Assembly: GCA_963626675.1 (NCBI GenBank)
Contig: CAVFXW010000001.1
Coordinates: forward strand, 8,232 to 72,231
DNA length: 64,000 nt
Direction of reading: 5' to 3'
Source: Clostridium sp. CAG:452
GTDB lineage: Bacteria > Spirochaetota > Spirochaetia > Sphaerochaetales > Sphaerochaetaceae
Translations under genes and position numbers: made by a program
Shown: one piece after another, positions 3,349 to 58,283 of the stretch
How the letters are laid out: each line of letters begins with the position of its first letter
How positions within the stretch are numbered: position 1 is the first letter of the stretch
The notes under the pieces: generated by a model
The model's database searches: none
The model's input: only the letters and a program-made list of their open reading frames with translations
Told to the model about the DNA's origin: nothing

Positions 3349-3430
3349 TTCTTTTATTCTCACTCAGGCTGCTATTTGGGTATAATGATTCTATAAGGTA
3401 GAATTCATTCTACCCGATAGGGAATAAATT

Positions 3431-4657: not shown

Positions 4658-4661
4658 ACTT

Positions 4662-42508: not shown

Positions 42509-42693
42509 GAGGATAGTTTAAAGAAAGAATGAACTATAGTTAAGTATTCCTTCTCATTTTAGATCTAGATATGGCCGTGTAATCTAAATTGATTAGTGTC
42601 TCAGTATTATATGACAAGCGTTCTTGAAAAAAGGGTGGTTGTGAAGATATGGGATGTGATAGACTCATAAAAACATCTTTAAGGAGATTTGAT

Positions 42694-42990
42694 ATGGAAA
42701 TAAAGAAAGAAAATAATGGAAAAGAGCTTACCCTTTTTATCAAAGGAAGACTTGATACTACTACTTCTCCACTTCTTGAAAGGGAATTAAAGGAGAGTAT
42801 AAGTGGAGTTGAGAAACTCATTCTGGATTTTTCGTTACTTGAATATCTTTCATCGGCAGGACTAAGGGTAATCCTTGCGGCCCAGAAGGTTATGAATAGG
42901 CAGGGTGAGATGATTGTGAGAAATGTCAACGAGACAATCAGCGAGATCTTCGAAGTTACAGGTTTTGTCGACATCCTTACAATAGAGTGA
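42694..42990 (+). CDS. STAS-domain anti-sigma-factor-antagonist-like protein (SpoIIAA/RsbV type)
   Basis: LTLFIKGRLDTTTSPLLEREL...LILDFSLLEYLSSAGLRVIL, with Ser in the phosphorylatable position, then VTGFVDILTI. The ATG at 42694 is preceded by AAGGAG. Confidence 0.85.
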   Translation: MEIKKENNGKELTLFIKGRLDTTTSPLLERELKESISGVEKLILDFSLLEYLSSAGLRVILAAQKVMNRQGEMIVRNVNETISEIFEVTGFVDILTIE

Positions 42991-43021
42991 GCTCTGATTA
43001 ATGCTATAGAGAGGAGGAAAT

Positions 43022-44743
43022 GTGGATTCACGTTTTCAATACAATGCATACAGATACTTTCTCCTCTGGGGTATATTCTCTTCTCTTGTTCTGACTCTTT
43101 CATGCTTTGTAGACGCTACACTTGTGGGAAGGCTAACAGGGAGCGACGGCCTTGCAGCATATAATCTTATAACTCCTGTATTTCTCTTATATGCGCTACT
43201 AGGCGTTACGATAGGAGTCGGCGCGAATGTCAGGGTGGTTAAACTTATCGGAGAAGACAAGAAAGAAGAGGCTGATGAAGTATTTCACAGTGCCCTTACA
43301 CTCGGTTTAATCGTATCGACTCTACTGCTTTTCCCCTTACTCTTTAAAAGAAAGTATGCATCATTTCTTGGCTTGACTGGTAGTTTGTATCCTCTCTCCG
43401 TAGGGTATCTTAGTACGGCGCTTCTAGCTTCTCCTGCATTTGTAATGTATCACATACTATCGGCCTCTGTACGCTCGGATGGCAATCCCCGTCTATGCTT
43501 CTGGAGTTCTCTTGTTGTGTGTTTAACGAACATTACACTCGATATCGTATTCATGAAGGTAATGAAAATGGGTATAAAAGGAGCCGCGATAGCGTTGTGT
43601 ATAGGAGAGACTCTTGGCGTTTTTACACTTCTCTCGCATTTTTTCAGAAAAAGAGGTCTCCTCACTCTTTCGTTAAAGCTACCTCATTTTACCTTTATCA
43701 GAACGCTTTTCTTGAATGGATGCAGCGTCGGCTCTGCATATATCTTCTCTGCACTTGTAATGCTGTTTTTTAATACGATGCTTCTTTCATACGGAGGTAC
43801 AAATGGTGCTCTCTATGTTGCTATATATGGCATAATATATACAATGAACACGACTGTGGCTGCTGTTTATGACGGTAATGGAATGGCAATGCAGAGTGTC
43901 ATTTCGTTTCTTACGGGGGAGGCGGACAGCGAGGGAATTATTGCTGTATTGAAAAGAGCTATTATCACAATGATTGTATTAAGTGTTGTGATGGTCATTC
44001 TTTTTTCTTCTTTTTCGTCTTGCTTAATCGCCCTCTTTGGCATTACGGGAAACGATGATGTATATGCGTCTTCTCGCGCATTGAGGATCTTTCTCATAAG
44101 TGCGATCTTTACTTCTCTGAATACTACACTTACTTCATTCTGGCTCAGTATAGGGAGAACGAGACTCGCATCTCTTATGTCCCTTATTAGAAACTGCCTC
44201 CTTATTCTTCTATTTGGCTTTATTCTTGTTCCTGGGTATCTTGTTGACGGACTCGGATTAACATATATAGCATCAGAGGCGTCATCTCTCTTAATTGCTC
44301 TTATTGTTCTTTGGAAAAGTCCATCGAGAGAATATATGAAGAAGAAGTTCGGTACTATAGAGAGTTCGTTTGAAAAGACTTATCTAATAAAGAAGGAGAG
44401 TATGGGTGATATTTCTTCGGACATTGAAAGGATAAGTAGAGACTGGGATATAGACTATAAGAGATCATTTATGATCAATTTTATATTGGAAGAAATACTT
44501 CTCAACATTATTAAGTTTGCATTGTCGGAAAATAGCAAAAAAGAATACTACATCTCGATAAAGATTATAGCAAAAGATGAGGATTTATGTCTCCGTATAC
44601 GCGATAACGTCAAAGAGTACAATCCCTTCGATTGTGGCGGCGATGAGATTGACAGTGGTGTCTTAAAATTAATAAAGAAGAAGACGAAGTATTTGGAGTA
44701 TCAGAGAAAGATGATCTTCAATTACTTCTACACGATAATTTGA
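43022..44743 (+). CDS. MATE-family transporter fused to a C-terminal RsbW/SpoIIAB-like HATPase domain (degenerate ATP lid)
   Basis: The first ~440 aa are a 12-TM MATE (VDATLVGRLTGSDGLAAYNLITP...). The last ~130 aa carry N-box-like LEEILLNIIKFA, then IRDNVKEYNPFD (G1 without Gly) and IDSGVLKLIKK (weak G2). GTG start after GAGGAGG. Confidence 0.75.
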   Translation: MDSRFQYNAYRYFLLWGIFSSLVLTLSCFVDATLVGRLTGSDGLAAYNLITPVFLLYALLGVTIGVGANVRVVKLIGEDKKEEADEVFHSALTLGLIVSTLLLFPLLFKRKYASFLGLTGSLYPLSVGYLSTALLASPAFVMYHILSASVRSDGNPRLCFWSSLVVCLTNITLDIVFMKVMKMGIKGAAIALCIGETLGVFTLLSHFFRKRGLLTLSLKLPHFTFIRTLFLNGCSVGSAYIFSALVMLFFNTMLLSYGGTNGALYVAIYGIIYTMNTTVAAVYDGNGMAMQSVISFLTGEADSEGIIAVLKRAIITMIVLSVVMVILFSSFSSCLIALFGITGNDDVYASSRALRIFLISAIFTSLNTTLTSFWLSIGRTRLASLMSLIRNCLLILLFGFILVPGYLVDGLGLTYIASEASSLLIALIVLWKSPSREYMKKKFGTIESSFEKTYLIKKESMGDISSDIERISRDWDIDYKRSFMINFILEEILLNIIKFALSENSKKEYYISIKIIAKDEDLCLRIRDNVKEYNPFDCGGDEIDSGVLKLIKKKTKYLEYQRKMIFNYFYTII

Positions 44744-44750
44744 GGTCGAG

Positions 44751-46169
44751 ATGGAAAATCTGTTCATTTTTCAGAACAATGATGAGATAGAAAGGCTTTC
44801 TGTACAGAACAAGCTTCTCTTTCCATATGAAAAGAAGGTTATGGACAAACTTTTCTTAGGGAGGAGCAATCTCTCCGTATTGGATATAGGTGCTAATGAC
44901 GGCAGTAAAACGTCCTCTCTTTTTTCAGATAGCAGAGTAGGAAGAGTCATTGCACTTGAATACAATGCACTTCTTGTGGAGAAAGCCGAGAGACAGAAAA
45001 AGGATGACCGTTTTTCCTTCTATACAGTAGATGTGGAGAAGGCTGATTATAAGAGCTTATTGAAGAGAGTGATGAAAGAGTCTTCTCTAAAAGGTTTTGA
45101 TATCATATACATATCATTTGTTCTAATGCATCTTAAGGAAAGCGAAGCGCTTCTCATCTCTCTTAAGGAATTTCTCAATTGTGGAGGAACTATCGTTATT
45201 ACGGAAGCTGATGACCTCTCGTCGCATCTTACTCCCGATGAAAATGGACTTCTTGAGACATTTCTTTCGATTCTCGATAAGGACAAGTATTCTGGTAACC
45301 GACGTCTCGGACACGATATTGAAAATATTGTGAAAAGTGCGGGATATGGGGATATAACTATCCACTGTGATGGCGTTTCGGCTTTTCCTGGGGAGGAGGA
45401 GAAGAAAAAAGATATCTATAAAACATTCTTTTCATATCTACCGGAGGATGTTGATATTCTTTTGAGTGAAGATGAAAAAAACAGTGAATACAGAGAATGG
45501 AAGAAGTGGATAGATTCGAATTATTTGTCACTCAAAGAGCTTATAGAGAGTCCTTCGTCCTCAATTTCCATGGGGATGAAGATACTTACTTGTCGTAAGA
45601 CGATTTTCCATTCTGTTCCTCTTGAGGAAAGTGAAATAAACTCAACTCTTCTTCTTATGGATGAATGTGTCGGTAAGAACCTTTACAATAAAGATGATCT
45701 ATCTAAGGCAATTAAATCTTGCGATGAGTTCTTTATGCTTTATAAGACTGAAGAGGGTGTCATAGGCGGATACATATATTACTTTCTTACCGATAAGGAG
45801 ATGCTCTCTTCTTCAGGTAAAATACCACGTAAGCAGTTAGACAGTGTCTATAAAGGCAATAAGTGCGCACGTATTCAATCCGTTGGAGTGAGAAAAGAGT
45901 ATAGTGGGTTTGGTCTTGGAACGAGGATGATCAAAGAGGCTCTTCTTGACAACAAAATGCGTGGTGTGGAGGCTGTATATTGTGTATGCTGGGCGCCAAA
46001 TGGAGAGGTTCCGCTTGCTTTCCCTCTCTATCAATCGGGATTTTCCCATCTCATGAAAATCAGAGACTACTGGGCTGAAGAAGAGAGCCTTGTCTGCCCG
46101 TATTGCTCTGGTCGCTGTCACTGCAACGCTGAAGTTTATTATAAAATATTGAAGGAGGAGTGTAGATGA
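44751..46169 (+). CDS. Class I SAM methyltransferase - GNAT acetyltransferase fusion with C-terminal CxxCx3CxC cluster
   Basis: MTase motif I VLDIGANDGSKTS and post-I VIALEYN. GNAT motif A IQSVGVRKEYSGFGLGTRMIKEAL. The tail is LVCPYCSGRCHCNAEVY. Confidence 0.7.
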   Translation: MENLFIFQNNDEIERLSVQNKLLFPYEKKVMDKLFLGRSNLSVLDIGANDGSKTSSLFSDSRVGRVIALEYNALLVEKAERQKKDDRFSFYTVDVEKADYKSLLKRVMKESSLKGFDIIYISFVLMHLKESEALLISLKEFLNCGGTIVITEADDLSSHLTPDENGLLETFLSILDKDKYSGNRRLGHDIENIVKSAGYGDITIHCDGVSAFPGEEEKKKDIYKTFFSYLPEDVDILLSEDEKNSEYREWKKWIDSNYLSLKELIESPSSSISMGMKILTCRKTIFHSVPLEESEINSTLLLMDECVGKNLYNKDDLSKAIKSCDEFFMLYKTEEGVIGGYIYYFLTDKEMLSSSGKIPRKQLDSVYKGNKCARIQSVGVRKEYSGFGLGTRMIKEALLDNKMRGVEAVYCVCWAPNGEVPLAFPLYQSGFSHLMKIRDYWAEEESLVCPYCSGRCHCNAEVYYKILKEECR

Positions 46170-48187
46170 AACTCAAGCTCTTACCCAAATTCATAATTTC
46201 ACTATGTGTTGTAGGTCTCGTTTTTATAGTGAGTGTCTCTCTTTTCGGTTATCTTACATCTAAAAGATATCTTGAGGAACTTTATGCAGAGCGTGTAATG
46301 ACGAACAGTAATACGATTGCTTCTCTTCTCGATAAAGAGGCTGTAAAGACTATCATTAGTGAAGGCGGGGAGAATACACAAGAGTACAAGACTATGTACA
46401 ATCTTTTCCAAGCCCTTAAAAAGGATGGTGATATTACATATCTATCTCTTGTTGTTCCCGGCAAGGACAGTGTTACATTTTACATAGATGCATTCGTTCC
46501 CGAGATGGGAGATAAAGAATCGGCTTTTCTTCCTTATGGGGCTGAGATTTTCTATAGAGATGCTGCCAATCCAGATGATCCTAACGACCTCGAGAAATAC
46601 TATGAGATATGGAATGCATATAAATTAAATAAAGGTCTCGATAAGCCACTTGTGACGGACAATAAGTATGGTTATAACTACACCGGCATTTCCGTTGTGC
46701 TCGATGAAAATGGAAAGGCCATTGCTGAGGTTCAATATATTCTGGACATGAGCGAGGTGAGATCATACCTCTTCTCATTCCTCAATAACATGATTTTGAT
46801 CTCATTTATAATAAGCGCCGTAACAATGGCTGCATACATTTTCTTTGTAAGAAAGATGGTAACTTTCCCTATTGGAAAGCTGACGAGTTTTACAGAGGAA
46901 ATAACAAAGACGAAAGATTTCGAGAATCAGAAAATAGAGATTAATACGGGGGATGAAATAGAGGCGCTCTCTTCTTCGTTTAATTTCATGCTTTTAGAGC
47001 TTGAAGAATATATAAAGAACCTTTCGATAGTTACACGAGAGAAGGAGAGGATAGGAACGGAACTTGATGTTGCACGTCATATACAGAGGAGCATGCTTCC
47101 GCACGCGATCCCTACATTACCTTGCCTCAATAAAATCGATATATATGCCACAATGACGAGTGCAAAGGAGGTCGGCGGCGACTTCTATGACTATTTTCTC
47201 ATCGATGATGATCACCTTGCCCTAGTTATGGCCGATGTTTCGGGTAAAGGAGTACCGGCTGCTCTCTTTATGGCGATAAGTAAGAGTCTTATTAAATCTG
47301 CTCTACAGAGCACCTTAAGTCCAAAAGAGGTATTAGAGAAGGTTAATAACCAGCTTTGTGAGAACAATGATGCAGGGATGTTTGTTACTGTATGGCTCGG
47401 TATACTCGATATAAAAAGTGGCGTTATGAAATGTGCCAACGCAGGACACGAGTTCCCCGTAGTTAAGCGCAATAACGGAAAATGGGAGCTCTATAAGGAT
47501 AAACACGGCTTTGTTCTTGCGGGCATGGAGGCATCGAAATACGTAGAGTATGAACTTAAATTCGATAAAGGCGATAAGCTCTTTGTCTATACCGACGGTG
47601 TTCCCGAGGCAACTGATGGTAACCTCGTCCTCTACGGGACAAAGAGAATGATAGACGCTCTCGATAGAACAGAGGGCCTATCTAGTCGTGAGAGCCTTGA
47701 GTATATTCAGAGTGACGTAAACAATTTTGTTGGCCATGTGGATCAATTTGATGATATAACAATGATGATGCTTGAGATAAAAGATTGTCCTCTTATAAAG
47801 GAGATTACCGTTACTCCGACACCAAAGTGTGTAGAGAGTGTCACATCATTTATTGAGGATATCCTATCTGATAGCGGGGCGCCATTTAAGACGATAGCAC
47901 AGGTGAATGTTGCAATAGACGAAATATTATCGAATATAATCTCTTACAGCGGGGCTGAAAAAGTGACTGTCAAATGTGCTTCTTCTCTCAGTGAGATAAA
48001 GATTGAGTTTTCAGATGATGGTAAACCATATGATCCGACTTCTTCTCCCGATCCTGATACCTCACTATCGGTGGAAGAGAGGAAGCTTGGAGGATTGGGT
48101 ATATTAATGGTTAAAAAGATAATGGACGATATAACATACATGTATAAGGAAAATAAGAACATCCTATCAATCAAGAAGGGCTGGTAA
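46166..48187 (+). CDS. Sensor PP2C (SpoIIE-type) phosphatase: TM - extracytoplasmic Cache-like domain - TM - HAMP - PP2C - C-terminal RsbW-like kinase domain
   Basis: Two TM segments flank about 170 aa. HAMP-like PIGKLTSFTEEI...IEALSSSFNFMLLEL. PP2C motifs EVGGDFYDY, LVMADVSGKGVPAALFM, YTDGVPEA and FDDITMMMLE. The kinase part has DEILSNII (N box), FSDDGKPYDP (G1) and GGLGILMVKK (G2). Confidence 0.85.
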   Translation: MKLKLLPKFIISLCVVGLVFIVSVSLFGYLTSKRYLEELYAERVMTNSNTIASLLDKEAVKTIISEGGENTQEYKTMYNLFQALKKDGDITYLSLVVPGKDSVTFYIDAFVPEMGDKESAFLPYGAEIFYRDAANPDDPNDLEKYYEIWNAYKLNKGLDKPLVTDNKYGYNYTGISVVLDENGKAIAEVQYILDMSEVRSYLFSFLNNMILISFIISAVTMAAYIFFVRKMVTFPIGKLTSFTEEITKTKDFENQKIEINTGDEIEALSSSFNFMLLELEEYIKNLSIVTREKERIGTELDVARHIQRSMLPHAIPTLPCLNKIDIYATMTSAKEVGGDFYDYFLIDDDHLALVMADVSGKGVPAALFMAISKSLIKSALQSTLSPKEVLEKVNNQLCENNDAGMFVTVWLGILDIKSGVMKCANAGHEFPVVKRNNGKWELYKDKHGFVLAGMEASKYVEYELKFDKGDKLFVYTDGVPEATDGNLVLYGTKRMIDALDRTEGLSSRESLEYIQSDVNNFVGHVDQFDDITMMMLEIKDCPLIKEITVTPTPKCVESVTSFIEDILSDSGAPFKTIAQVNVAIDEILSNIISYSGAEKVTVKCASSLSEIKIEFSDDGKPYDPTSSPDPDTSLSVEERKLGGLGILMVKKIMDDITYMYKENKNILSIKKGW

Positions 48188-48190
48188 AAG

Positions 48191-48661
48191 ATGAATGAAA
48201 ATCTGTTTCGTAAATCAAGTGTTGACAGGGTAAATTCCCCCGAAGAGCTCAATGACTACATCCGTGTCGCTTCTCCAAGCGTATGGCTTATTCTTTCTGC
48301 TATAGTTGCATTCCTCGTTGGAGTTGTAATCTGGGGAATATGGGGAAATATAGAGGTGACAGTAAAGGCCCCTGTAGTAGTAAAGGATGGTGTAGTGACT
48401 TGCTACGTAGATGATGTTTCATCTCTTGAGGAGGCCCTGGACGTTCGTATTGACGGAAAAATTGGCAGTATAAAGAGTATAAAGCGAACGCCGGTTGAGA
48501 TCACAGATGACTATGACCCGTATTTTCTTTATATCTCATCGTACTCGTCGGGATCATTTGCCTATCCAGTCACCGTTGAAATAAGTGGGCTTGAAGACGG
48601 AGTATACAGCTCGGAGATTGTGAAAGAGAGAATCAATCCAATCTACTTTATCATCCATTAG
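48191..48661 (+). CDS. Miniature HlyD-type (NHLM bacteriocin-system secretion protein-like) membrane-anchored protein
   Basis: LFRKSSVDRVNSPEELNDYIRVASPSVWLILSAIVAFLVGVVIWGIWGNIEV matches the characteristic N-terminus of NHLM/NHLP-system HlyD proteins. Only 156 aa. It starts 3 nt after the PP2C stop, and the next gene follows 9 nt later. Confidence 0.6.
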   Translation: MNENLFRKSSVDRVNSPEELNDYIRVASPSVWLILSAIVAFLVGVVIWGIWGNIEVTVKAPVVVKDGVVTCYVDDVSSLEEALDVRIDGKIGSIKSIKRTPVEITDDYDPYFLYISSYSSGSFAYPVTVEISGLEDGVYSSEIVKERINPIYFIIH

Positions 48662-48670
48662 GGGGAGATT

Positions 48671-50854
48671 ATGGAAAAGAAGAAGAGGTCTGCTCCTCCT
48701 ATAAAGGGTGGCGTTGCCAAAGTTCCTGTAGTTATACAGTTGGAGGCATTGGAATGTGGAGCTGCCGCTCTTACGATGATTCTTGAGTATTACGGTAAGT
48801 GGATTCCTCTTGAGAAGGTTCGTGCAGACTGTGGTGTCTCTAGAGACGGTTCGAATGCAAAGAATATTCTCAAGGCGGCACGCTCCTATGGCTTAAAAGC
48901 GAAAGGCTATAGATATGAGCCGGAAAAGCTAAAGGAGGATGGCGTCTTTCCGTGTATAATACACTGGAACTTTAATCATTTCGTGGTTTTATGTGGTTTT
49001 AAGGGAAATAAGGCCGTTATAAATGATCCTGCAAAGGGAACATACTCTGTTTCGTTTGAGACATTCGATAAATCATTTACCGGAATATGTCTCATGATGG
49101 AGCCTGGAGAGGATTTTGTCCCTGAGGGAAAAAAGAAGAGTGTAGCTTCATTTATAAAGAAAAAACTCAAGGGTACTGGTAGTTCATTCTCTCTCGTTGT
49201 CATTACGACTTTCATCTCATTTCTTATCGGCATCATAACGCCCGGATTTTCGAATGTCTTTGCAGATTATCTCCTCTCTGGAAAGAATATGGAATGGTTC
49301 ATGCCTTTCATGTACGGTATAACTGCAATATCGATCATACAGATAATAGTTGGGATAATACAGTCGGTGTATACTCTCAAGGTTAACGGAAAGATAGCGA
49401 TAGTCGCAAACAGCGAGTACATGTGGCATGTTCTGCGTCTTCCTATGGAGTTTTTCTCTGTTCGTATGGCCGGGGATATACAGGCGCGTCGGAGCCAGAA
49501 CGAGTCGATCGCTGGGACTATAATTAATACTTTTGCCCCTCTTTCAATTGAGGCTTTCATGCTTTTCTTCTACCTATTTGTAATGCTGAGGTATAGTATA
49601 GTATTGTCGTTTGTTGGGATTCTTTCGGTATTTTTAAATATGGCGGTGAGCTCATATATATCGAAAAAGAGAGTCAATTCCACTCGTGTTGCAAGTAGAG
49701 ATAACGGCAAGTTATATGGTGCGACGGTTGCGGGAATCGAGATGATAGAGTCGATTAAGTCCACTGGAGGAGAGAACGGTTTCTTCGAGAAGTGGTCGGG
49801 TTATCAGGCGAGTGTAAACTCCGGACAGGTGAAATGCACACGTCTTAATGCACTCTTTGGTCTCATACCTTCTCTAATAAGCATGCTTACCAATAATATA
49901 GTCCTATTGGGGGGTGTCTATCTCTGTCAGAATGGCGCATGGACAGTCGGTATGATAAGTGCGTTCTCCGGCTTTCTTTCCTCCTTTCTCTCTCCAGCAA
50001 TGCTCTTTGTCTCGGCATCGCAATCTCTTTTGGAGATGCGTACGAGTATGGAGAGGATTGAGGATGTTATGGAATATAAGACCGATATCCCGTACGCACT
50101 AGAAGGTGTAAAGGACGATGTAGAATACGATAAACTCAGCGGCAAAATAGAGCTTAGGAATGTTACATTCGGCTACTCACGTCTTGGAGAACCTCTTATT
50201 AAAGATTTCTCTATGACGCTTGAGAGAGGTCAGACTGTGGCCTTTGTTGGGCCATCTGGCTCGGGAAAATCGACATTGGGTAAGTTGATATCTGGGCTAT
50301 ATAAACCTTGGAGTGGAGAGATTCTCTTCGATGGAAAGCCTATAAGTGAAATAAACCATTCGGTATTCACCGGCTCAGTTAGCGTTGTGGATCAAGATAT
50401 TACGCTCTTTGAGGATACAATCGCCAATAATATAAAGATGTGGGACGACTCGATAGAGGACTTTGAAATGATACTTGCTGCAAGGGACGCCCAGATCCAC
50501 AGCGATATAATGCTTAGAGATGGAGGATACTCATATAAACTAATGGAGGGAGGAAAGGATCTATCGGGCGGACAGAGACAGAGGCTTGAGATAGCACGAG
50601 TACTAGCAGAAGATCCAACAATTATCATCATGGATGAGGCAACAAGTGCCTTAGATGCAAAGACGGAGTATTGTGTTGTCTCGTCAATTAGAAATAGAGG
50701 TATAACGACCATTGTTATCGCTCATAGACTCAGCACAATCAGGGATGCTGATGAAATCATCGTTCTCGACAACGGATTAGTTGTGGAGAGGGGAACTCAT
50801 GATGCTCTCTATAAGAAGGGCGGAGTTTATACTTCGCTCGTTTCCAACGAGTAA
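48671..50854 (+). CDS. Bacteriocin-processing ABC exporter with N-terminal C39 cysteine peptidase domain (NHLM ABC1-like)
   Basis: C39 catalytic residues in QLEALECGAAAL (Cys29), WNFNHFVVL (His) and INDPAKG (Asp). Six TM helices. Walker [10 protein letters not shown], signature LSGGQRQR, Walker B IIIMDEATSALD. Confidence 0.9.
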   Translation: MEKKKRSAPPIKGGVAKVPVVIQLEALECGAAALTMILEYYGKWIPLEKVRADCGVSRDGSNAKNILKAARSYGLKAKGYRYEPEKLKEDGVFPCIIHWNFNHFVVLCGFKGNKAVINDPAKGTYSVSFETFDKSFTGICLMMEPGEDFVPEGKKKSVASFIKKKLKGTGSSFSLVVITTFISFLIGIITPGFSNVFADYLLSGKNMEWFMPFMYGITAISIIQIIVGIIQSVYTLKVNGKIAIVANSEYMWHVLRLPMEFFSVRMAGDIQARRSQNESIAGTIINTFAPLSIEAFMLFFYLFVMLRYSIVLSFVGILSVFLNMAVSSYISKKRVNSTRVASRDNGKLYGATVAGIEMIESIKSTGGENGFFEKWSGYQASVNSGQVKCTRLNALFGLIPSLISMLTNNIVLLGGVYLCQNGAWTVGMISAFSGFLSSFLSPAMLFVSASQSLLEMRTSMERIEDVMEYKTDIPYALEGVKDDVEYDKLSGKIELRNVTFGYSRLGEPLIKDFSMTLERGQTVAFVGPSGSGKSTLGKLISGLYKPWSGEILFDGKPISEINHSVFTGSVSVVDQDITLFEDTIANNIKMWDDSIEDFEMILAARDAQIHSDIMLRDGGYSYKLMEGGKDLSGGQRQRLEIARVLAEDPTIIIMDEATSALDAKTEYCVVSSIRNRGITTIVIAHRLSTIRDADEIIVLDNGLVVERGTHDALYKKGGVYTSLVSNE

Positions 50855-50865
50855 GGAAGGATACT

Positions 50866-53049
50866 ATGGGTTGGTTTGATGAACAGATAAGAGAACGTAT
50901 ACAAAAAGATGATGATAACTTCGCAGATGCATTTGCTTCTCTTGCTTCTCTTGTTATGGGAAAGCGTATAACAAGGGCCTTGAATGAGGCTAAGTTTCAG
51001 ACGAAGTCCGCAATCGAGGAAATATTGAAATATTACCATATAAAGGCAGTTGAACTTCCCGATTGTGTGAAGGATGTAAACGATCAGCTTGAGTATTTAT
51101 TGCGTCCGAGCGGCATTATGAGACGGACGGTGAGCCTCAGCGACGGGTGGTATAAAGACGCTATAGGCGCGATGCTGGGCTCTCTTAAATCTGACGGCAC
51201 TCCTATTGCGCTTCTTCCCCATGGAACAAATGGATATAGGTATTTCGACAGCAGAAAAAAGAAGTGGGTGCGTGTTAATAAGGAAAGCGCCAAGGAGATA
51301 GATAGTGAAGCTATATGCTTTTACAAACCTTTTCCAATGAAAAAACTCGGCGTCAAGGATCTCCTCTTATACATAGTGGGATTGATGAATATTTCAGATT
51401 ATGTGGCTTTGTGTCTCATAACACTTGCTGTTTCCTTAGTCGGTCTTTTTACTCCGAAAATCCAAAGGCTTATTTACGGACCTGTGATAGAAGGCGGTAG
51501 CGCTGAGCTTCTATTTGCCGTATTCGGCTTCCTCATTTCAATCAGTGTTTCTCAGCTTCTTATCTCTTCTACGCGCTCTCTTATCATGGGAAGGCTATCG
51601 ACTAAAATGAATACAAGTGTGCAAGCAGCTGGGATGATAAGGTTACTCTCCCTTCCTGCGCAGTTCTTTAAGGACTACTCTGCCGGAGAGCTCTCGTCTC
51701 GTATGAATGCACTCAACTCTTTGTGCTCAGTGCTTGTAAGTACGATTTTTACGACAGGGCTCTCAAGTCTCTTTTCACTTATTTATATAACCCAGATGGT
51801 CCAATACGGGCCGCATTTGGTCATTCCGGGACTAATTGTCATTCTTGTAACTGTAATTTTCTCGCTTATTACTACGTTGGTTCAACTTAGGGTGAGTGAA
51901 AAGCAGCTTCTCCTCTCTGCTTCGGAGTCTGGGCTTGAGTATTCACTAATTACGGGAGTGCAGAAGATAAAACTCAGCGGGGCAGAGAAGAGAGCTTTTG
52001 CTAAATGGGCCGAGGCTTACACGGCAGAAGCGAGAGAGGAGTATGATCCACCGTTTTTCTTAAAGCTTAGCGGAGTATTTTCATCATGCATATCACTTGT
52101 AGGAACGATTGTAATATATTTCTTTACCATAAAGACTAATGTAAGTCTTGCGGATTATTATGCATTTAACAGTGCTTATGGCGCGGTGATGGGGGCATTT
52201 ACATCCCTTGTATCATTGTCAACAACGGCTGCAAGAATCAGACCACTGTTAAATATGGTGAAGCCTATAATCGAGACTGTACCTGAGACAGCACAGTCAA
52301 AAAGGGTGGTTACAAGACTTTCTGGTGCGATAGAACTTAACAATGTCTCTTTCCGTTACACCCCCGATGGGCCACTTATTCTTGACGATCTTTCACTTAA
52401 GATAAGGCCGGGACAGTATACTGCGATAGTAGGTGCAACAGGATGTGGTAAGTCGACTCTTATGCGTCTCATGCTTGGCTTTGAGACTCCGCAGAAGGGT
52501 GCCATCTACTACGATGGGATGGATCTTGCTTCTCTTGATCTCAAGTCATTAAGACGGAAAATCGGATCTGTAATGCAGAATGGGAAGCTCTTTCAAGGCG
52601 ATATCTACTCAAACATAGTAATAACAGCTCCATCTCTCGGCCTGGAGGAGGCATGGATAGCTGCAGAGAAAGCAGGGATTAAGGAAGATATAGAGAGAAT
52701 GCCGATGGGGATGCATACAATCATCAGCGAAGGAACGGGAGGTATTTCCGGTGGACAAAGACAGAGGATTATGATAGCCCGTGCAATAGCACCCAAGCCG
52801 AGGATTCTCATGTTTGATGAAGCGACAAGTGCACTCGACAATATTACACAGAAGATAGTTTCTGATTCACTTTCAAAGCTCAAGTGTACACGCATTGTAA
52901 TTGCACACCGTCTCTCAACAATAAAGGAATGTGACAGAATTATAGTATTGGACAAAGGTAAAATAGTTGAAGATGGAAAATATGATGAGCTGATTGCTAA
53001 AAATGGATATTTTGCATCTCTTGTTTCAAGACAGCGACTTGACGGATAA
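50866..53049 (+). CDS. Second ABC exporter with non-catalytic N-terminal peptidase-like domain (NHLM ABC2-like)
   Basis: N-terminal ~160 aa lack a catalytic Cys. PIALLPHGTNGYRYFD...EAICFYKPFP pattern as in NHLM-system ATP-binding proteins. Walker A GATGCGKST, ISGGQRQR, ILMFDEATSALD. Confidence 0.85.
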   Translation: MGWFDEQIRERIQKDDDNFADAFASLASLVMGKRITRALNEAKFQTKSAIEEILKYYHIKAVELPDCVKDVNDQLEYLLRPSGIMRRTVSLSDGWYKDAIGAMLGSLKSDGTPIALLPHGTNGYRYFDSRKKKWVRVNKESAKEIDSEAICFYKPFPMKKLGVKDLLLYIVGLMNISDYVALCLITLAVSLVGLFTPKIQRLIYGPVIEGGSAELLFAVFGFLISISVSQLLISSTRSLIMGRLSTKMNTSVQAAGMIRLLSLPAQFFKDYSAGELSSRMNALNSLCSVLVSTIFTTGLSSLFSLIYITQMVQYGPHLVIPGLIVILVTVIFSLITTLVQLRVSEKQLLLSASESGLEYSLITGVQKIKLSGAEKRAFAKWAEAYTAEAREEYDPPFFLKLSGVFSSCISLVGTIVIYFFTIKTNVSLADYYAFNSAYGAVMGAFTSLVSLSTTAARIRPLLNMVKPIIETVPETAQSKRVVTRLSGAIELNNVSFRYTPDGPLILDDLSLKIRPGQYTAIVGATGCGKSTLMRLMLGFETPQKGAIYYDGMDLASLDLKSLRRKIGSVMQNGKLFQGDIYSNIVITAPSLGLEEAWIAAEKAGIKEDIERMPMGMHTIISEGTGGISGGQRQRIMIARAIAPKPRILMFDEATSALDNITQKIVSDSLSKLKCTRIVIAHRLSTIKECDRIIVLDKGKIVEDGKYDELIAKNGYFASLVSRQRLDG

Positions 53050-53101
53050 TTCTCTTACAATACGGGAAATTATGCGTAATAATAATTAAAAGGATGAAAG
53101 A

Positions 53102-53533
53102 ATGAATAATTTAGAAAATGATTTTATTGAAAAAGTAAAGAATGCGAGAAGTGTTGATGATATCATAAATATTGCACACGAGAATGGAATTGAAATTAGA
53201 AGAGAGCAGGCACAGTTCTATTTTAACAATATGAAACAAGGCGAACTAACAGATGATGAGATATCATCTGTCTCAGGAGGCGGTTGTAGTAGCAGTAGAA
53301 GTTCCGTATCCTCATCAAAGAGCGATTTACGCCTCGGTACAGTCGTCACTCTTAAAAACAACGGACATACGTTCTCCTCTTCTGCTGCTTCGACAATTTG
53401 TAGTAACCCGAATTGTGGAAGCAACACGTTTTATATTTTGAGAAAAATAAGCGGCACTGATTATTATCTAATGGAATGTACCAAATGTAAGTGGACCTAT
53501 AATGCTTTAAGAGACAATATAACTGCTATTTAA
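53102..53533 (+). CDS. RiPP/bacteriocin precursor with Nif11-type leader and double-glycine cleavage motif; 83-aa Ser-rich, Cys-containing core
   Basis: The leader is MNNLENDFIEKVKNARSVDDIINIAHENGIEIRREQ...GELTDDEISSVSGG (Nif11 pattern F.EKVK....S.....IA.E.G.EI, then ELTDDE..SVSGG). The core has Cys at residues 62, 100, 105, 126 and 129. It sits between the exporter and an rSAM/SPASM gene. Confidence 0.8.
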   Translation: MNNLENDFIEKVKNARSVDDIINIAHENGIEIRREQAQFYFNNMKQGELTDDEISSVSGGGCSSSRSSVSSSKSDLRLGTVVTLKNNGHTFSSSAASTICSNPNCGSNTFYILRKISGTDYYLMECTKCKWTYNALRDNITAI

Positions 53534-53578
53534 TAGGGTTATCCTCTTTTCAAGAGCCACTCTTGCCGAGAAAGAATA

Positions 53579-54991
53579 ATGTATTACGTAATTAATCCGA
53601 ATATAGGAATAAGGAGTTGGTGGCGCTCTCCGTACTCTTATTACATGAAAGGTGTGAGGAATGCGTTTAGACTTACTCAAGAAGAATTTGAATTCCTTTA
53701 TAAGTGTGATGGTATTACAAATCTTGAGGAAGGAAGCCTTTCGAATAGAATGCTCAATCGAGCCATGATTATACCTTGTAAGAAGGGAGAAATGTCTCTC
53801 TCCTCATGGCAGAGAAAGATCTGTGACAATCGATATTTTCCTGCCATGAATTGGATGATTACCGGTAAATGCAACTACAATTGTCTTCATTGTTTCAATG
53901 CGTCAGATAATGCGCCTCTCATGAGTGAGTTCACGCTTAAAGAAGCAGAGCGCCTGATGGATGAAGCCGAGGAATGTGGAATCAACGCCTTTACAATAAC
54001 AGGTGGTGAGCCCATGTGTCATAAATCTTTCTTTGATATAATCGAGGGGATATATAAGAGAGGAATGTTCGTCGAAGAGCTTAATACGAATGGCTATTAT
54101 ATAACCCAGGATGCTCTCGATTCATTCAAAGCTATAGGATGCCATCCTCTCATAAAGATATCGTTTGATGGAGTTGCCCACCATGATTGGCTGAGAAACC
54201 GCCCTGGCGCAGAGGAGGATGCCCTCAGGGCAATAAAACTATCTGTTGAAAACGGCTTTCGGGTCAAAGTTCAGAGTAATGTTCATCGCAATAATGTCGA
54301 AAGTATGATTACCTCTGCACACCTTCTTAACAAAATTGGTGTCAGCGAGATGCGCCTTATTCGCACAACGGAAGCACCACGCTGGATAAAGAACGGAGGA
54401 TCAAATACACTCACCCTTTCTGAGTATTTCGACAGAATGCTCTCTTTTATAGAAGAATATTCAGCCTCGAGAGACAAAATGGAGATCGACATATGGCAGC
54501 TCTTACATCTTTACCCAGAAAGTAAATCCTATAGGCCACGTGCCGTAGAGTGCATCGAGGAAGAGTATAGGGACTCTCTTCCTGTGTGTCGCGGAAACAG
54601 GGGTATGGTCGCTGTGGCTGCTAACGGGAACTTATTTCCATGCCTTCAGATGTCAGGATACTACGAAACGCACAATTGGAAACTGGGCAATGTGAAAGAG
54701 AACGGCCTCAAGAGATATCTTCAGCATGGAGATTACCTTGAAGAAGTATGTACTACGGTAAAGGATCTCAAGGACAGTAATGAAAAATGCCGCCGGTGCG
54801 AATGGTTTAAGTATTGCGTCGGAGGCTGCAGGGCTCTAGCTCTTCTATTCAGTGGCGACAAAAAGGGTAGCGATATATCAAAATGTCTTTTCTTTAAAGG
54901 CGGTTATATGGAGAAGCTCAAGAATGTAATGAAAGACTGGCGTGATGTAAGCGGAGTTATGAAAAGTAGAGAAAATGTGAACATTACTTGA
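53579..54991 (+). CDS. Radical SAM / SPASM-domain peptide maturase with N-terminal RRE-like extension
   Basis: CNYNCLHC (Cys98/102/105) rSAM cluster and TITGGEP. SPASM motif CRGNRGMVAVAANGNLFPC (GX4C) ... CRRCEWFKYCVGGC (CX2CX5CX3C) plus a trailing Cys. The first ~90 aa carry RLTQEEFEFLYKCDGITNLEE, which is PqqD/RRE-like. Confidence 0.9.
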   Translation: MYYVINPNIGIRSWWRSPYSYYMKGVRNAFRLTQEEFEFLYKCDGITNLEEGSLSNRMLNRAMIIPCKKGEMSLSSWQRKICDNRYFPAMNWMITGKCNYNCLHCFNASDNAPLMSEFTLKEAERLMDEAEECGINAFTITGGEPMCHKSFFDIIEGIYKRGMFVEELNTNGYYITQDALDSFKAIGCHPLIKISFDGVAHHDWLRNRPGAEEDALRAIKLSVENGFRVKVQSNVHRNNVESMITSAHLLNKIGVSEMRLIRTTEAPRWIKNGGSNTLTLSEYFDRMLSFIEEYSASRDKMEIDIWQLLHLYPESKSYRPRAVECIEEEYRDSLPVCRGNRGMVAVAANGNLFPCLQMSGYYETHNWKLGNVKENGLKRYLQHGDYLEEVCTTVKDLKDSNEKCRRCEWFKYCVGGCRALALLFSGDKKGSDISKCLFFKGGYMEKLKNVMKDWRDVSGVMKSRENVNIT

Positions 54992-55054
54992 AGTTTCTGG
55001 TTTTCTTTTCATTTGTTATTTACCTTGAATTTAAAATAGGGATATTTTTAAACA

Positions 55055-56476
55055 ATGAAAAAGAAATTGCTAATTACCATTTTATTGGCAATAGCTGTGC
55101 TTATTACAATCAACGCAGCAACTGTCGATGAAATACTTGAGAGCGCGAAGAAGACAAGTCCGTCATATCAAAATATTTTATTGAACTATCAAAACGGGCT
55201 TCTTACAGTCGCTGAACTTGGAAAAGATGATGAAATCGGGGTTGCACTTTCTGTGACGGTTGACCCGTTGAGCGAGGTCTACTCTGGCGGTAGCACTACA
55301 CCATCTTCACTTACTGATACAAGTAGTAAAGGGCTTACAGCCACGCCTACAGCCCAAATAACGTTTCCTAATGATGGGAATACTACAATCAGTGGAGGCG
55401 CGAGGATTTCAACAAGATATGAAGATGGCTCTACTTCAATAAGTGGCGAGGTCGGGGTTTCTCATACTTTTGATTTTTCAGGATATTCTAGTAAGCATTC
55501 TGAGGATTTGAAATATGCCTCTACAAAATACAGTACGGAGCTTACATACAGTAAAGCAGAGCTCTCGTTTGAGACGAGTGTCCTTAAAATGATTTCATCG
55601 ATTCTTAGCGCTGAAAGTTCAATTAAGAGGGCTCAATTCAATCTTAAAAAACAGCAGACAGCATTCGATAAACTTACTGCTTTAAAAACATATTCAGAAG
55701 ATTCGAGTGTTTATAAGAGCACTCTCAATACACTCAATGCTCTTGAGAGTTCACTCTCTTCGACAGAGGAGCAATATAATAGCCTTCTTTCAAGATACAA
55801 GACTCTTACCGGCCTAGCATGGGAGGGCGTTGATGTGGGAGAGCCTCCCGTACTTACGCTGACAACATACGAGAATGGTAATACAGAAGTTATGATAGAA
55901 TCTTTGAATGCCGAAAGCAGTGAAGAATCTTATAAGAGTACGCTTGCTTCTTCAAAGCCCTCAAAGCTTGTAACTTCGTTATCTCTTTCGGCATCAAGTA
56001 GCAAGTATGATATTTCGGGTTCTTTGCAATATGCCGGTAACAATTGGAGTATTACTGCAAAGCCTGGGGTAAGTATATCTAGTGACGGCGATACAACACC
56101 GAGCCTTACATTAGCGGGAAGCTGGAAGAATAATGAAGGCTCTATCACATCTGGCTCTGCACTTAGTAGTGCTTTGAACAATGCCAAAGTAGCAGCCAAT
56201 AATTACCTTGAGGCACTTTCAACATATGAGGAGAATGCAACGAATTATGCTCTCGAGATTGTAGAATGGAATACCAAACTCTCTCAAGCTAAAGCCGATT
56301 TGGAGTATAAAGAGACTCTTCTCGAGAGTGCCCAGGCTCTTTATGACTTGGGTTTGAATACATCGGAGGAACTCGAGAGTGCCGAGCTCGAGTACACTCT
56401 AAGTAAGACCGACTATGATAAGGTGATAATCGAAGGATTATCTCTAGAACGTGATTTAGCAATATTTGCACTATAA
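55055..56476 (+). CDS. TolC-like outer-membrane efflux protein (divergent, Ser/Thr-rich inserts)
   Basis: Signal MKKKLLITILLAIAVLITINA. OEP-like start TVDEILESAKKTSPSYQNILLNYQNG. Two helical repeats, the second ending LESAQALYDLGLNTSEELESAELEY. Precedes an adaptor/ABC set. Confidence 0.6.
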   Translation: MKKKLLITILLAIAVLITINAATVDEILESAKKTSPSYQNILLNYQNGLLTVAELGKDDEIGVALSVTVDPLSEVYSGGSTTPSSLTDTSSKGLTATPTAQITFPNDGNTTISGGARISTRYEDGSTSISGEVGVSHTFDFSGYSSKHSEDLKYASTKYSTELTYSKAELSFETSVLKMISSILSAESSIKRAQFNLKKQQTAFDKLTALKTYSEDSSVYKSTLNTLNALESSLSSTEEQYNSLLSRYKTLTGLAWEGVDVGEPPVLTLTTYENGNTEVMIESLNAESSEESYKSTLASSKPSKLVTSLSLSASSSKYDISGSLQYAGNNWSITAKPGVSISSDGDTTPSLTLAGSWKNNEGSITSGSALSSALNNAKVAANNYLEALSTYEENATNYALEIVEWNTKLSQAKADLEYKETLLESAQALYDLGLNTSEELESAELEYTLSKTDYDKVIIEGLSLERDLAIFAL

Positions 56477-56493
56477 GGAACAGAAAATAGATT

Positions 56494-57588
56494 ATGGATA
56501 AGAAAGAAGAAATATTGACAGAAAGTGAAAGACAAGAGAAGAAATTGAGGGAAGCTCAAAAAGCAAGAAAGAGAAGAAAAAGAGTAAAGACATTCCTAGG
56601 GTGGATTATTGTTATATTCATTGTAGCGCTTGTTCTCGTTTGGTTCTTAAAAATGAAGAAGGACAGTGAGGCTCAAATTGCTGCTCTTCAGAATGCATCG
56701 AATGAGATTGAATATACTGTGACAAGAACGAATTACGTAAAGTCTATAGATGTTTCCGGTAATGTCGTAGCATATGACAAACAGGAAGCGAACTTCCGCT
56801 CCGCAGGTGCTGTAACGGGTGTGTTTGTAAAAGTCGGGGACAAGGTCGAGAAGGGACAGATTCTTGCGACTATAGACTCAACCGAGCAGCAATATAATCT
56901 CAAGCAGATCGAAAATCAGATTGCAGAGGCCAAAATTACAGGTTCTTTACAGACTCTCGAGTCTTTGGAGCTAAAGAAAAGTAATGCAGAAGAGCAGCTA
57001 TCATATACAACACTTACAGCGAACTTTGATGGAATTGTATCGAAGGTAAGTATAAGTGAGAATGACTATGTTACGGCTGGAACTGCAGTCATTACGGTTA
57101 TTGATGTTTCGAAACTCAAGACTACTGTCGAAATCGATGAAATCGATATGCAATACATAGAAGAGAATCAGACAGCGACACTCTCGTTTGATTCTCTTCC
57201 TGGTGAGAGCGTTGTTGCATATGTTTCATACATCCCGATGGAAGGAAGATATACAACACAGGGAATTGGTGTTGTTGATGTAGAGATGACAATAGAAAAT
57301 CCTCCGTCAGGACTCAGAACTGGATTTACATTCACCGGTTCGATTGATCTAGAACAGGATGTGAATATTCTTCTTATTCCGTCTTCATCTGTCTCCTCCG
57401 AGCGTGGCGGAAGAACTTTTGTTACTGTAAAGAAGGCGGACGGCCAGAGTGAGAGAAGAAGTGTGACGGTTTCGTATCTAGGAGAAGGATACAGCGAAGT
57501 ACTCTCAGGCCTCAGTGAGGGAGAAGTCATTGTTTATTCTCAGTCATCCGGTGGTGGCATGGGCTTCATGATGAGAGGAGGATTTTAA
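56494..57588 (+). CDS. Efflux periplasmic adaptor (HlyD/MacA family)
   Basis: N-terminal TM. Lipoyl-like GAVTGVFVKVGDKVEKGQILATID, a coiled coil, then LTANFDGIVSKV and beta-barrel/MPD parts. Confidence 0.8.
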   Translation: MDKKEEILTESERQEKKLREAQKARKRRKRVKTFLGWIIVIFIVALVLVWFLKMKKDSEAQIAALQNASNEIEYTVTRTNYVKSIDVSGNVVAYDKQEANFRSAGAVTGVFVKVGDKVEKGQILATIDSTEQQYNLKQIENQIAEAKITGSLQTLESLELKKSNAEEQLSYTTLTANFDGIVSKVSISENDYVTAGTAVITVIDVSKLKTTVEIDEIDMQYIEENQTATLSFDSLPGESVVAYVSYIPMEGRYTTQGIGVVDVEMTIENPPSGLRTGFTFTGSIDLEQDVNILLIPSSSVSSERGGRTFVTVKKADGQSERRSVTVSYLGEGYSEVLSGLSEGEVIVYSQSSGGGMGFMMRGGF

Positions 57589-58283
57589 TGGCGTCTAGTG
57601 TTATAGAGCTTCAGAATGTCAGGCGCTATTACCTCGTGGGTGAATACGTTGTCAAAGCTCTTGATGATGTATCGCTTACCATAGATAGAGGCTCATTTAC
57701 CGCAATAATGGGACCTAGCGGAAGTGGTAAGTCTACTCTTATGAACCTTATCGGTTGTCTTGATACTCCAACAAGCGGGTATATTACAATCGGTGGTGAG
57801 CTTACAAACGGAATGGACGAGTCTGAGCTTGCATTTTTGAGAAATCAGAAGATAGGCTTTGTCTTCCAACAGTTTAATTTGCTTGGAAAACTCAATGCTC
57901 TGGAGAATGTTATGACACCGATGCTCTATTGTCTTGTCCCTCACAAGGAGAGAAAGGAGAGAGCTGAGGCAATGCTGGAAAAGGTAGGGCTCAAAGATAG
58001 AATGAAACATCTTCCGAGCGAGCTATCGGGTGGGCAGAAGCAGAGAGTTGCTATTGCACGCGCTCTTGTCAACGATCCCGATATTCTCCTAGCCGATGAG
58101 CCTACTGGAGCTCTTGATAGTAGAACGGGCCATGAGGTTATGGGGCTTTTTCAGGAATTGAATGAAGAAGGACGTACAATCGTCTTTGTTACACATGATA
58201 GAAAATTGGGAATGCAATGTGCAGAACAGGTTTTCATTAAAGATGGAAGGATAGTAGAGGAAGATGTTACTCGAGAACTTTAA
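57588..58283 (+). CDS. MacB/LolD-type ABC transporter ATP-binding protein
   Basis: [47 protein letters not shown] and VTHD motifs. 1-nt overlap (TAATG) with the adaptor gene. Confidence 0.9.

Follow-up and report, generated by a model that had tools for sequence, protein, structure and literature searches.

What does a partner-switching system act on when no sigma factor gene lies beside it? The question is raised by a group of genes at positions 42694-48187 of a 64-kb stretch of DNA from Clostridium sp. CAG:452 (assembly GCA_963626675.1, contig CAVFXW010000001.1, forward-strand positions 8,232 to 72,231). This stretch is all of that genome that was analysed, and it is called the window below. 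The genes encode a STAS protein, a MATE transporter that ends in a degenerate RsbW-type domain, and a membrane-bound PP2C phosphatase fused to an intact RsbW-type kinase. Our preferred answer, to which we give a probability of about 45%, is a partner-switching phospho-relay of the RsbU/V/W type that targets the MATE exporter rather than a sigma factor. The unphosphorylated STAS protein would dock on the transporter-borne pseudokinase and gate export.

Organisation of the cassette

Thirteen co-directional genes occupied positions 42694-59436 on the + strand, with spacing that ranged from a 20-nt overlap to 63 nt. The cassette proper is made up of the first four genes (STAS, MATE-pseudokinase, methyltransferase-GNAT and sensor PP2C-kinase), in which the following parts were recognised:

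42694..42990, + strand: STAS-domain-only protein, 98 aa, predicted phospho-switch protein (Pfam STAS, NCBIfam ant_ant_sig)
43022..44326, + strand: MATE membrane part (MatE) of a 573-aa protein, whole gene 43022-44743
44327..44743, + strand: RsbW/SpoIIAB-fold pseudokinase, C-terminal domain of the MATE protein (aa 436-573), predicted STAS docking site
44751..46169, + strand: fused class I S-adenosylmethionine-dependent methyltransferase (aa 1-285) and GNAT acyltransferase (aa 286-472), 472 aa (Pfam)
46166..46867, + strand: sensor part of the 673-aa phosphatase-kinase, with transmembrane (TM) segment 1 (aa 8-30), an extracytoplasmic domain (aa 31-205) and TM segment 2 (aa 206-228)
46868..47008, + strand: HAMP linker of the phosphatase-kinase, aa 235-281 (Pfam HAMP below threshold)
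47204..47779, + strand: PP2C/SpoIIE phosphatase domain, aa 347-538 (SpoIIE 1.1e-44)
47816..48187, + strand: intact RsbW-type serine kinase domain, aa 551-673, fused to the phosphatase (HATPase_c_2 3.9e-18)

The first-pass annotation, made from the sequence alone, had described a three-part module composed of a STAS protein, a phosphatase and two HATPase domains. This anatomy was borne out, but the methyltransferase-GNAT gene, which lies within the same interval and is a core member of the cassette, had been left out. The protein it encodes matched Methyltransf_31, 23, 12 and 11 as well as Acetyltransf_1 (Pfam), and its stop codon overlaps the start of the phosphatase-kinase gene (ATGA).

The STAS protein was recognised by Pfam STAS (E=5.8e-15) and by the NCBIfam "anti-sigma factor antagonist" model (ant_ant_sig, 69.6 bits against a cutoff of 53.45). 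Of two possible start codons, the one at 42694 is favoured over the upstream ATG at 42649, since AGGAG stands 7 nt before it and since it gives the 98-aa length of the homologues. The motif Y[LIV]SSAGLR, with its phosphorylatable Ser, was invariant in 36 of 36 STAS homologues, in agreement with the Ser noted at the LSSAGL position in the first reading of the sequence. The predicted phosphorylation site is the second S of LSSAGL. STAS was also the most conserved protein of the cassette, with 59-84% identity compared with 43-63% for the MATE protein.

A degenerate RsbW-type domain on the transporter

The MATE protein matched MatE in two stretches (Pfam, E=1.5e-31) and NCBIfam MATE efflux models over aa 14-432. 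The two MatE repeats identify a MATE membrane domain (MatE, PF01554) of about 12 TM segments. Its gene begins with a GTG codon preceded by AGGAGG, and the homologues start with MDTRFQY. A second MATE transporter in the window (20480-21865, - strand, 461 aa) was an ordinary one without a C-terminal RsbW-like domain.

The C-terminus of the cassette's MATE protein matched HATPase_c_2 with 18.2-22 bits, under the Pfam gathering threshold of 27.4. The profile was matched by 33 of 33 sampled members of the MATE family (best 2.8e-7) over profile positions 6-82 of 127, a stretch that begins at the N box and reaches G1. A fold search was needed since querying the PDB with the pseudokinase profile by sequence alone yielded just a marginal histidine-kinase match (VraS, E=0.059). 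An AlphaFold2 model of residues 436-573 had a mean predicted local distance difference test (pLDDT) score of 84.2 and a predicted template modelling score of 0.77; alignments for the structure models were built from substrings of the proteins found in the homology searches. The best solved matches of this model in Foldseek were RsbW (6m36, 6m37), SpoIIAB (1tid, 1th8, 1l0o) and UsfX (8ih8, 8jzt), followed by SiaB and Rv1364c, with E-values from 1.6e-5 and TM-scores of 0.55-0.74. In addition, hhalign aligned the pseudokinase with the cassette's own kinase at 92.6% probability over 81 columns, and the alignment ended where the ATP lid begins. The domain is thus predicted to have the Bergerat fold of RsbW and SpoIIAB, and solved complexes show STAS proteins bound by this fold (6m36/6m37, 1th8/1tid).

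An alignment of 26 pseudokinase sequences, in which this domain was the most conserved part of the MATE protein, showed EE..LN, RIRD, V530, Y533, NPF, GD and D544 to be invariant and N529 to be nearly so. In an alignment widened to 33 sequences, L494, N495 and Y533 were variable or fell just short of invariance. The N-box Glu and the G1 Asp of RIRD were invariant and the N-box Asn was kept in at least 90% of the members. From the set of catalytic motifs (N-box E/N, G1 DxGxG, a full lid and G2 GxGxG), the rest was missing: G1 read D-N-V in place of D-x-G, so that its glycines were replaced, the ATP lid was about 12 residues shorter than that of the cassette's kinase, and the G2 GxG motif, GGLG in the true kinase, was absent. 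The description of the MATE C-terminus as a degenerate RsbW-type domain, which goes back to the first-pass annotation, is accurate.

The sensor phosphatase-kinase

The phosphatase-kinase (46166-48187) consisted of a TM segment, a 175-aa extracytoplasmic domain, a second TM segment, HAMP, SpoIIE/PP2C and HATPase_c_2, the TM segments being hydrophobic stretches seen in the translation. Pfam did not detect Cache in the window protein, and among nine family members one gave a weak match (dCache_1, E=0.02, 14.9 bits). The model of the extracytoplasmic domain had a pLDDT of 91.3. It matched the PAS/sCache domain of CitA, the dCache domain of Tlp3, an sCache chemoreceptor of Oscillibacter and KinD (E about 3e-4 to 2e-3, target TM-score up to 0.75). 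A long N-terminal helix and a PAS-like alpha/beta fold between the two TM segments are predicted, as in Cache domains. With this moderate support, the term "Cache-like" seems valid for the sensor domain at the level of fold only. Mean column identity of the domain across the family was 74%, and such strong conservation suggests a ligand in common. HAMP remained below the 25-bit threshold in the window (E=0.0023, 18.7 bits), while PF00672 was precomputed in many homologues. The proposed order of TM segment, Cache-like loop, TM segment and HAMP therefore holds at fold level, whereas Pfam misses Cache and leaves HAMP under threshold. More generally, Pfam recovered STAS, SpoIIE and the HATPase_c_2 domain of the kinase, but scored HAMP and the MATE-borne HATPase_c_2 domain below threshold and did not find Cache.

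The PP2C metal-binding motifs GGDFYD, ADVSGKG, TDGVPE and DDIT were all present in the translation. The kinase domain matched HATPase_c_2 over aa 551-671 (E=3.9e-18) and carried the N box DEILSNII, G1 DDGKPYDP and G2 GGLGIL. The residues E, N, D, G and GGLG of these boxes were invariant in 24 homologues. An intact RsbW-type domain at the C-terminus of the phosphatase, as first proposed, is well founded. The nearest solved structures to the PP2C domain were Rv1364c, RssB and SiaA, Rv1364c being the one closest to the sensor protein.

Conservation of the cassette among relatives

No record matched the phosphatase-kinase protein exactly, and the MATE protein led to an identical contig, GCA_963644735.1. 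The MATE fusion was represented by more than 120 full-length homologue clusters. A locus scan with one genome per species produced 77 loci (L numbers), from Clostridia (Blautia, Bariatricus, Oscillospiraceae and Faecalibacterium metagenome-assembled genomes (MAGs)) and from spirochaetes (Bullifex porci and a Spirochaetales MAG). The closest relatives, L004-L014, shared gene order with the window and had proteins 56-63% identical to its own. Their MAG records bear unrelated names (Comamonas kerstersii, Muribaculaceae, Eggerthellaceae, Selenomonadaceae, Faecalibacterium), and the labels or the binning look unreliable.

Domain-wise searches of open reading frames (ORFs) revealed a fixed order in about 70 loci: STAS, MATE-pseudokinase, methyltransferase, GNAT, sensor PP2C and kinase. 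Where at least 5.6 kb of downstream sequence was available (49 loci), the methyltransferase was found in 44, GNAT in 36, the sensor PP2C in 44 and the kinase in 35. STAS was directly 5′ of the MATE gene in 29 of the 61 loci with at least 500 nt upstream, and all four partners were present in 25 of the 41 loci with both flanks. The methyltransferase and GNAT are core members of the cassette, encoded in relatives mostly by two separate genes. Among the 35 kinase-bearing loci, the kinase was fused to PP2C in 17 and was a separate gene of 131-139 aa in 18, so a free-standing RsbW-like gene is normal in relatives. The phosphatase-kinase and methyltransferase-GNAT fusions are features of the window's lineage. 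The emphasis that had been placed on both kinase-like domains being fused to other proteins is right for that lineage but does not extend to the system.

Five Blautia loci (L050:9950-11722, L051, L052, L054 and L072) had a lone MATE-pseudokinase gene beside methylene-tetrahydrofolate reductase genes. Over a distance of 10 kb these orphans had neither STAS nor PP2C, kinase or methyltransferase genes as neighbours, yet they kept all of the pseudokinase motifs.

A second PP2C gene, of about 500 aa, lay directly 5′ of the MATE gene in L015-L020, L043, L053, L060, L062 and L066, and so the number of phosphatases per module varies. L060 had an additional free-standing kinase gene (9526-9933). In L056 there were two adjacent MATE + RsbW-like paralogues (3023-4738 and 4804-6528), the second of which alone matched the C-terminal profile of the window protein.

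Distant MatE and RsbW-like fusions

Searching 1.84 billion representatives of 50%-identity clusters with the pseudokinase profile recovered 515 proteins at E <= 1e-3, and 87 of the best 150 of these were MatE + RsbW-like fusions. The GxG motif was likewise absent from 52 of 66 full-length distant fusions. Several of the distant fusions exceeded the Pfam threshold for HATPase_c_2. A second HATPase domain was present in three fusions among the best 150 of the 515. In one of them, P0233 (L084:1992-4157), two RsbW-like domains stand in tandem on the MATE protein. The first is degenerate and has also lost the N-box Asn, and the second reads as a canonical kinase with G1 and G2 intact. P0237 (L088:888-3248) is a MATE protein with two HATPase_c_2 stretches.

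The neighbourhoods of ten distant fusion proteins were inspected, eight of which were informative. PP2C and/or STAS genes were adjacent in six of the eight:

P0154 (L081): SpoIIE, HATPase_c_2 and STAS, divergent from a phosphopantetheinyl transferase, the fusion and a nonribosomal peptide synthetase (NRPS)
P0192 (L082): the fusion, then HAMP-PP2C
P0172 (L085): the fusion, then two PP2C genes
P0160 (L090): STAS, LPG_synthase_C, the fusion, GNAT, SpoIIE + HATPase_c_2
P0237 (L088): the fusion, with STAS immediately next
P0164 (L093): GH3, the fusion, HAMP-PP2C

The STAS proteins of L081 and L090 carried the hallmark motifs of the window's STAS protein. The remaining neighbours were biosynthetic or conjugating (NRPS, GH3, GNAT, an aminoacyl-lipid-synthase-like domain and glycosyltransferases), and no member of the Sigma70 family was recorded among the neighbours inspected. 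A literature search found no paper on a MatE + RsbW-like (HATPase_c_2) architecture or on MATE-linked partner switching. These fusions make up a broad architecture that is apparently undescribed.

Proposed mechanism and alternatives

In the mechanism that we propose, all binding, phosphorylation and transport steps of which we infer, the membrane sensor would bind an extracellular ligand through its Cache-like domain, and HAMP would relay the signal to the PP2C domain, which would dephosphorylate STAS. The intact RsbW-type kinase domain, here fused to the phosphatase, would re-phosphorylate STAS on its invariant Ser. Unphosphorylated STAS would dock on the RsbW-fold domain at the MATE C-terminus. 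Since the pseudokinase presumably cannot phosphorylate STAS and hence cannot release it, its occupancy would report the phosphorylation state of STAS and would turn export on or off. The cargo is probably a small molecule that is made or tailored by the co-conserved methyltransferase and GNAT, and in this genome it may be tied to the adjacent Nif11-type peptide cluster. An exporter as the target of the switch is the most economical reading, given the fold and degeneracy of the pseudokinase, a synteny that is both tight and wide, kinase fusions to either partner and a majority of loci free of sigma genes. A wider proposal, which we put forward tentatively and at a little under even odds, is that MatE/MOP exporters with a C-terminal dead RsbW domain form a widespread undescribed class, gated post-translationally by a STAS phospho-switch. 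The pseudokinase would replace the sigma factor as the target, and whether gut anaerobes export a locally produced metabolite or peptide would be decided directly by an extracellular signal acting through the PP2C sensor.

Several observations weigh against this mechanism. The pseudokinase motifs were equally conserved where no STAS or kinase gene was nearby, that is in the Blautia orphans and in L033, L034, L037, L040, L063 and L073. In such loci STAS would have to be encoded elsewhere, or the domain would have a STAS-independent function. The strict invariance of the N-box Glu and the G1 Asp indicates that the pseudokinase may retain some nucleotide binding or may act in another way. In L005-L011 an ECF-type (extracytoplasmic function) sigma gene (Sigma70_r2 + r4; TIGR02937 106-111 bits) preceded STAS on the same strand at a distance of 30-55 nt, and in L079 the distance was about 260 nt. 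In the window, the negative search for sigma genes covers 64 kb of the genome.

Conservation of the pseudokinase in loci without a local STAS gene would fit an alternative in which the transporter is an input or scaffold instead of the target. The pseudokinase would then pair with the kinase and tether it, and in the window the whole sensor phosphatase-kinase, to the transporter, the transport state would modulate STAS phosphorylation, and free STAS would act elsewhere. RsbW-type proteins act as dimers, and the MATE-pseudokinase-kinase tandems of P0233 and P0237 resemble a covalent heterodimer. The occurrence of the kinase in three arrangements (free-standing, PP2C-fused and MATE-fused) also fits such pairing. 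However, the cassette conserves no other candidate target for STAS, and a dedicated extracytoplasmic sensor domain is already present, hence a second input is not required. We consider a scaffold role unlikely.

Classical sigma control would have an RsbW-like domain, either the kinase or the pseudokinase as an anchored anti-sigma factor, sequester a sigma factor encoded outside the window. Dephosphorylated STAS would free it, and the array, including the peptide cluster, would be switched on. Apart from the sigma genes 5′ of STAS already mentioned, a similar gene adjoined the precursor genes in L028 and L031 and followed the PP2C gene in L063 and L073. Also in keeping with classical control, none of these sigma genes was seen to have a conventional anti-sigma gene as a neighbour. 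The ECF-type sigma genes were located as follows:

5′ of STAS: L005:8514-9116, L006:9001-9603, L007:9159-9653, L008:8898-9530, L009:8893-9639, L010:9033-9659, L011:210-872, L079:8742-9302
Beside precursor genes: L028:20372-20920, L031:14037-14513
After the PP2C gene: L063:13179-13760, L073:3948-4439
In a further locus: L058:5330-5806

The distribution of these genes argues against classical control. Of 43 loci of at least 15 kb, a sigma gene was present in 10 of the 13 with an NHLP-type ABC exporter and in none of the 30 without one (Fisher p = 1.5e-7, for loci that are not phylogenetically independent). These 30 had the cassette with neither a sigma gene nor peptide-export genes. The sigma gene travels with the peptide-export genes and not with the switch-MATE cassette, which makes a general role of the pseudokinase as a membrane-anchored anti-sigma factor unlikely. 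The window belongs to a minority with export genes but no sigma gene, together with L027, L030 (a Bullifex porci isolate) and L044. Hsp33(-), sigma(+) and STAS(+) succeed one another in L005 and L006, and in the window a spacer of about 185 nt is all that separates Hsp33(-) from STAS(+), the sigma gene being cleanly absent. The sigma profile matched none of the ORFs of the window even at E <= 10, nor was any further STAS, PP2C or RsbW-like gene present there, so that the cognate sigma factor of an RsbU/V/W switch was not found within the 64 kb. The statements of the first-pass annotation that neither a sigma factor nor a free-standing anti-sigma gene occurs in the array or its flanks were thereby upheld. 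The distant MatE + RsbW-like families with PP2C or STAS neighbours show no sigma gene either. RsbW-type anti-sigma factors act on group 3 sigma factors and are not known for ECF ones, which also counts against classical control. A paper reclassifying the ECF sigma factors does not mention STAS or RsbW contexts. A SigG gene 3′ of the kinase gene in L064 was regarded as a chance neighbour, SigG being a sporulation gene. An output in transport rather than transcription, suggested in the first reading, gains comparative support from the roughly 70 loci and the distant families. The ECF-type sigma genes of the relatives leave some room for classical control, which we judge to be quite improbable.

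That the domain on the MATE protein is an active serine kinase in spite of its unusual motifs, acting on STAS or on the transporter while the canonical kinase is redundant or otherwise directed, would suit the retained N-box and G1 residues and eight loci that have MATE, methyltransferase and sensor PP2C genes without a detectable canonical kinase gene (L045 and L055 among them keep STAS), but is very improbable in view of the D-N-V at G1, the missing G2, the short lid, the 52 of 66 distant fusions without GxG, and the tendency of STAS and kinase to be lost together.

Comparison with known systems

With the RsbU/RsbV/RsbW and SpoIIE/SpoIIAA/SpoIIAB switches of Bacillus subtilis the cassette shares a STAS protein with a phosphorylatable Ser, a PP2C phosphatase and a GHKL-type serine kinase, and the MATE-borne domain has the predicted RsbW/SpoIIAB fold. 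Unlike those switches, the window has no sigma gene in 64 kb, carries a second, degenerate RsbW-like domain on a transporter, and has as its phosphatase a membrane sensor with an extracytoplasmic domain.

SiaABCD of Pseudomonas aeruginosa is similar in having a membrane HAMP-PP2C phosphatase, a kinase and a small switch protein. SiaA was the best NCBIfam match of the sensor, though at 61.7 bits against a cutoff of 700, and 6k4e was among its PDB relatives. In that system the unphosphorylated switch protein SiaC acts on SiaD, a diguanylate cyclase, and no sigma factor is involved (PMC8457831, PMC7647112). No GGDEF protein was found in the array by Pfam, and the cassette is not a SiaABCD system. 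The candidate target here is instead a MATE exporter with its own RsbW-like docking domain.

Rv1364c of Mycobacterium tuberculosis (3ke6) has PP2C and an RsbW-type kinase on one polypeptide and aligned across both (query residues 314-601). HsbR of Pseudomonas is likewise a bifunctional phosphatase-kinase. SypE of Vibrio fischeri is another, and it acts on one STAS domain (PMC8256260, PMC10120452). A phosphatase and a kinase for the same STAS substrate on one polypeptide, which the first reading had taken, together with the transporter-borne pseudokinase, to suggest an output in transport or secretion, are present in the window as described, but the arrangement is already known from these three proteins. 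They are cytoplasmic with PAS or receiver inputs, whereas the window protein has a transmembrane Cache-like/HAMP sensor, and the fusion is optional in its family (17 fused, 18 split).

STAS outputs other than sigma factors have been described for SypA, BtrV, RbaV and HmpV (PMC8256260), and the HenR/All4160 partner switch of Anabaena does not act on a sigma factor (bioRxiv 10.64898/2026.04.08.717354). BtrU/BtrV/BtrW of Bordetella, a partner switch with a secretion output and no dedicated sigma factor (PMC8256260), acts on type III secretion, while in the window the candidate target is marked by a domain fusion. STAS regulators on the cytoplasmic face of a transporter are also known: MlaB regulates the ABC transporter MlaFEDB via MlaF (PMC7367683), and SLC26/SulP transporters carry a C-terminal STAS domain (PMC8256260). 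These are constitutive or fused partners without a dedicated phosphatase-kinase pair, and they bind an ABC ATPase or the transporter core, not an RsbW-fold domain. The new element in the window is an RsbW-fold pseudokinase built into a MATE/MOP exporter within a partner-switching cassette.

Many partner switches lack a sigma factor, and their direct STAS target is mostly unknown, as for SypA, RbaV and HmpV (PMC8256260). Here the domain fusion names a concrete candidate, and the link is conserved across spirochaetes, Clostridia and divergent families. If the proposal is right, a MATE exporter would for the first time be seen to be regulated through a partner protein that is reversibly phosphorylated on serine, and the pseudokinase would clearly illustrate how such a domain can evolve into the receptor of a switch. 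The cassette would also provide a way to study how gut bacteria control their export of secondary metabolites or peptides. Cultured carriers exist among isolates of Bullifex porci (NM-380-WT-3C1, L030), Bariatricus (Bariatricus sp. HCP28S3_D3, L034) and Blautia.

Neighbouring genes and other features of the window

A 187-aa ORF on the - strand (42540-43103), which overlaps STAS and the 5′ end of the MATE gene in antisense orientation, was regarded as spurious and is probably not a gene. No RNA family was found in an Rfam scan of the window. A promoter and terminator scan gave sites that were no more numerous than in shuffled sequence, and it was not used.

Downstream of the cassette, the tightly packed array continues with a peptide-export part and ends with genes for an outer-membrane factor, an adaptor, MacB and FtsX:

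48191..48661, + strand: small membrane protein, 156 aa (NCBIfam NHLM_micro_HlyD 2e-10, positions 1-52 of 421)
48671..53049, + strand: two NHLP/Nif11-type ABC exporter subunits, the first with a C39 peptidase domain
53102..54991, + strand: putative Nif11-like-leader precursor and radical SAM/SPASM maturase (Radical_SAM, SPASM)
55055..59436, + strand: outer-membrane factor, HlyD-type adaptor, MacB-type ABC ATPase and FtsX permease (Pfam OEP, HlyD_D23, ABC_tran, MacB_PCD, FtsX)

The peptide-export part, which begins with the HlyD-like protein of 156 aa, was common to about one third of the relatives. The short HlyD form was conserved in relatives and is thus not a recent truncation. A full HlyD-type adaptor was encoded at 56494-57588. 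The exporter subunits scored above the cutoffs of NHLM_micro_ABC1 (887 bits, cutoff 853) and NHLM_micro_ABC2 (747 bits, cutoff 709). The candidate precursor (53102-53533, 143 aa) matched leader_Nif11 with 24.9 bits, under the cutoff of 32.3. An SGGG motif was seen around residue 58, and the C-terminus was rich in Cys, with CxxC motifs in pairs. For a peptide precursor it was unusually long, the relatives having one to three shorter copies. In L004, L012 and L013 the OEP, HlyD, MacB and FtsX genes stood directly 3′ of the kinase gene. The OEP and MacB genes of the window point to a diderm.

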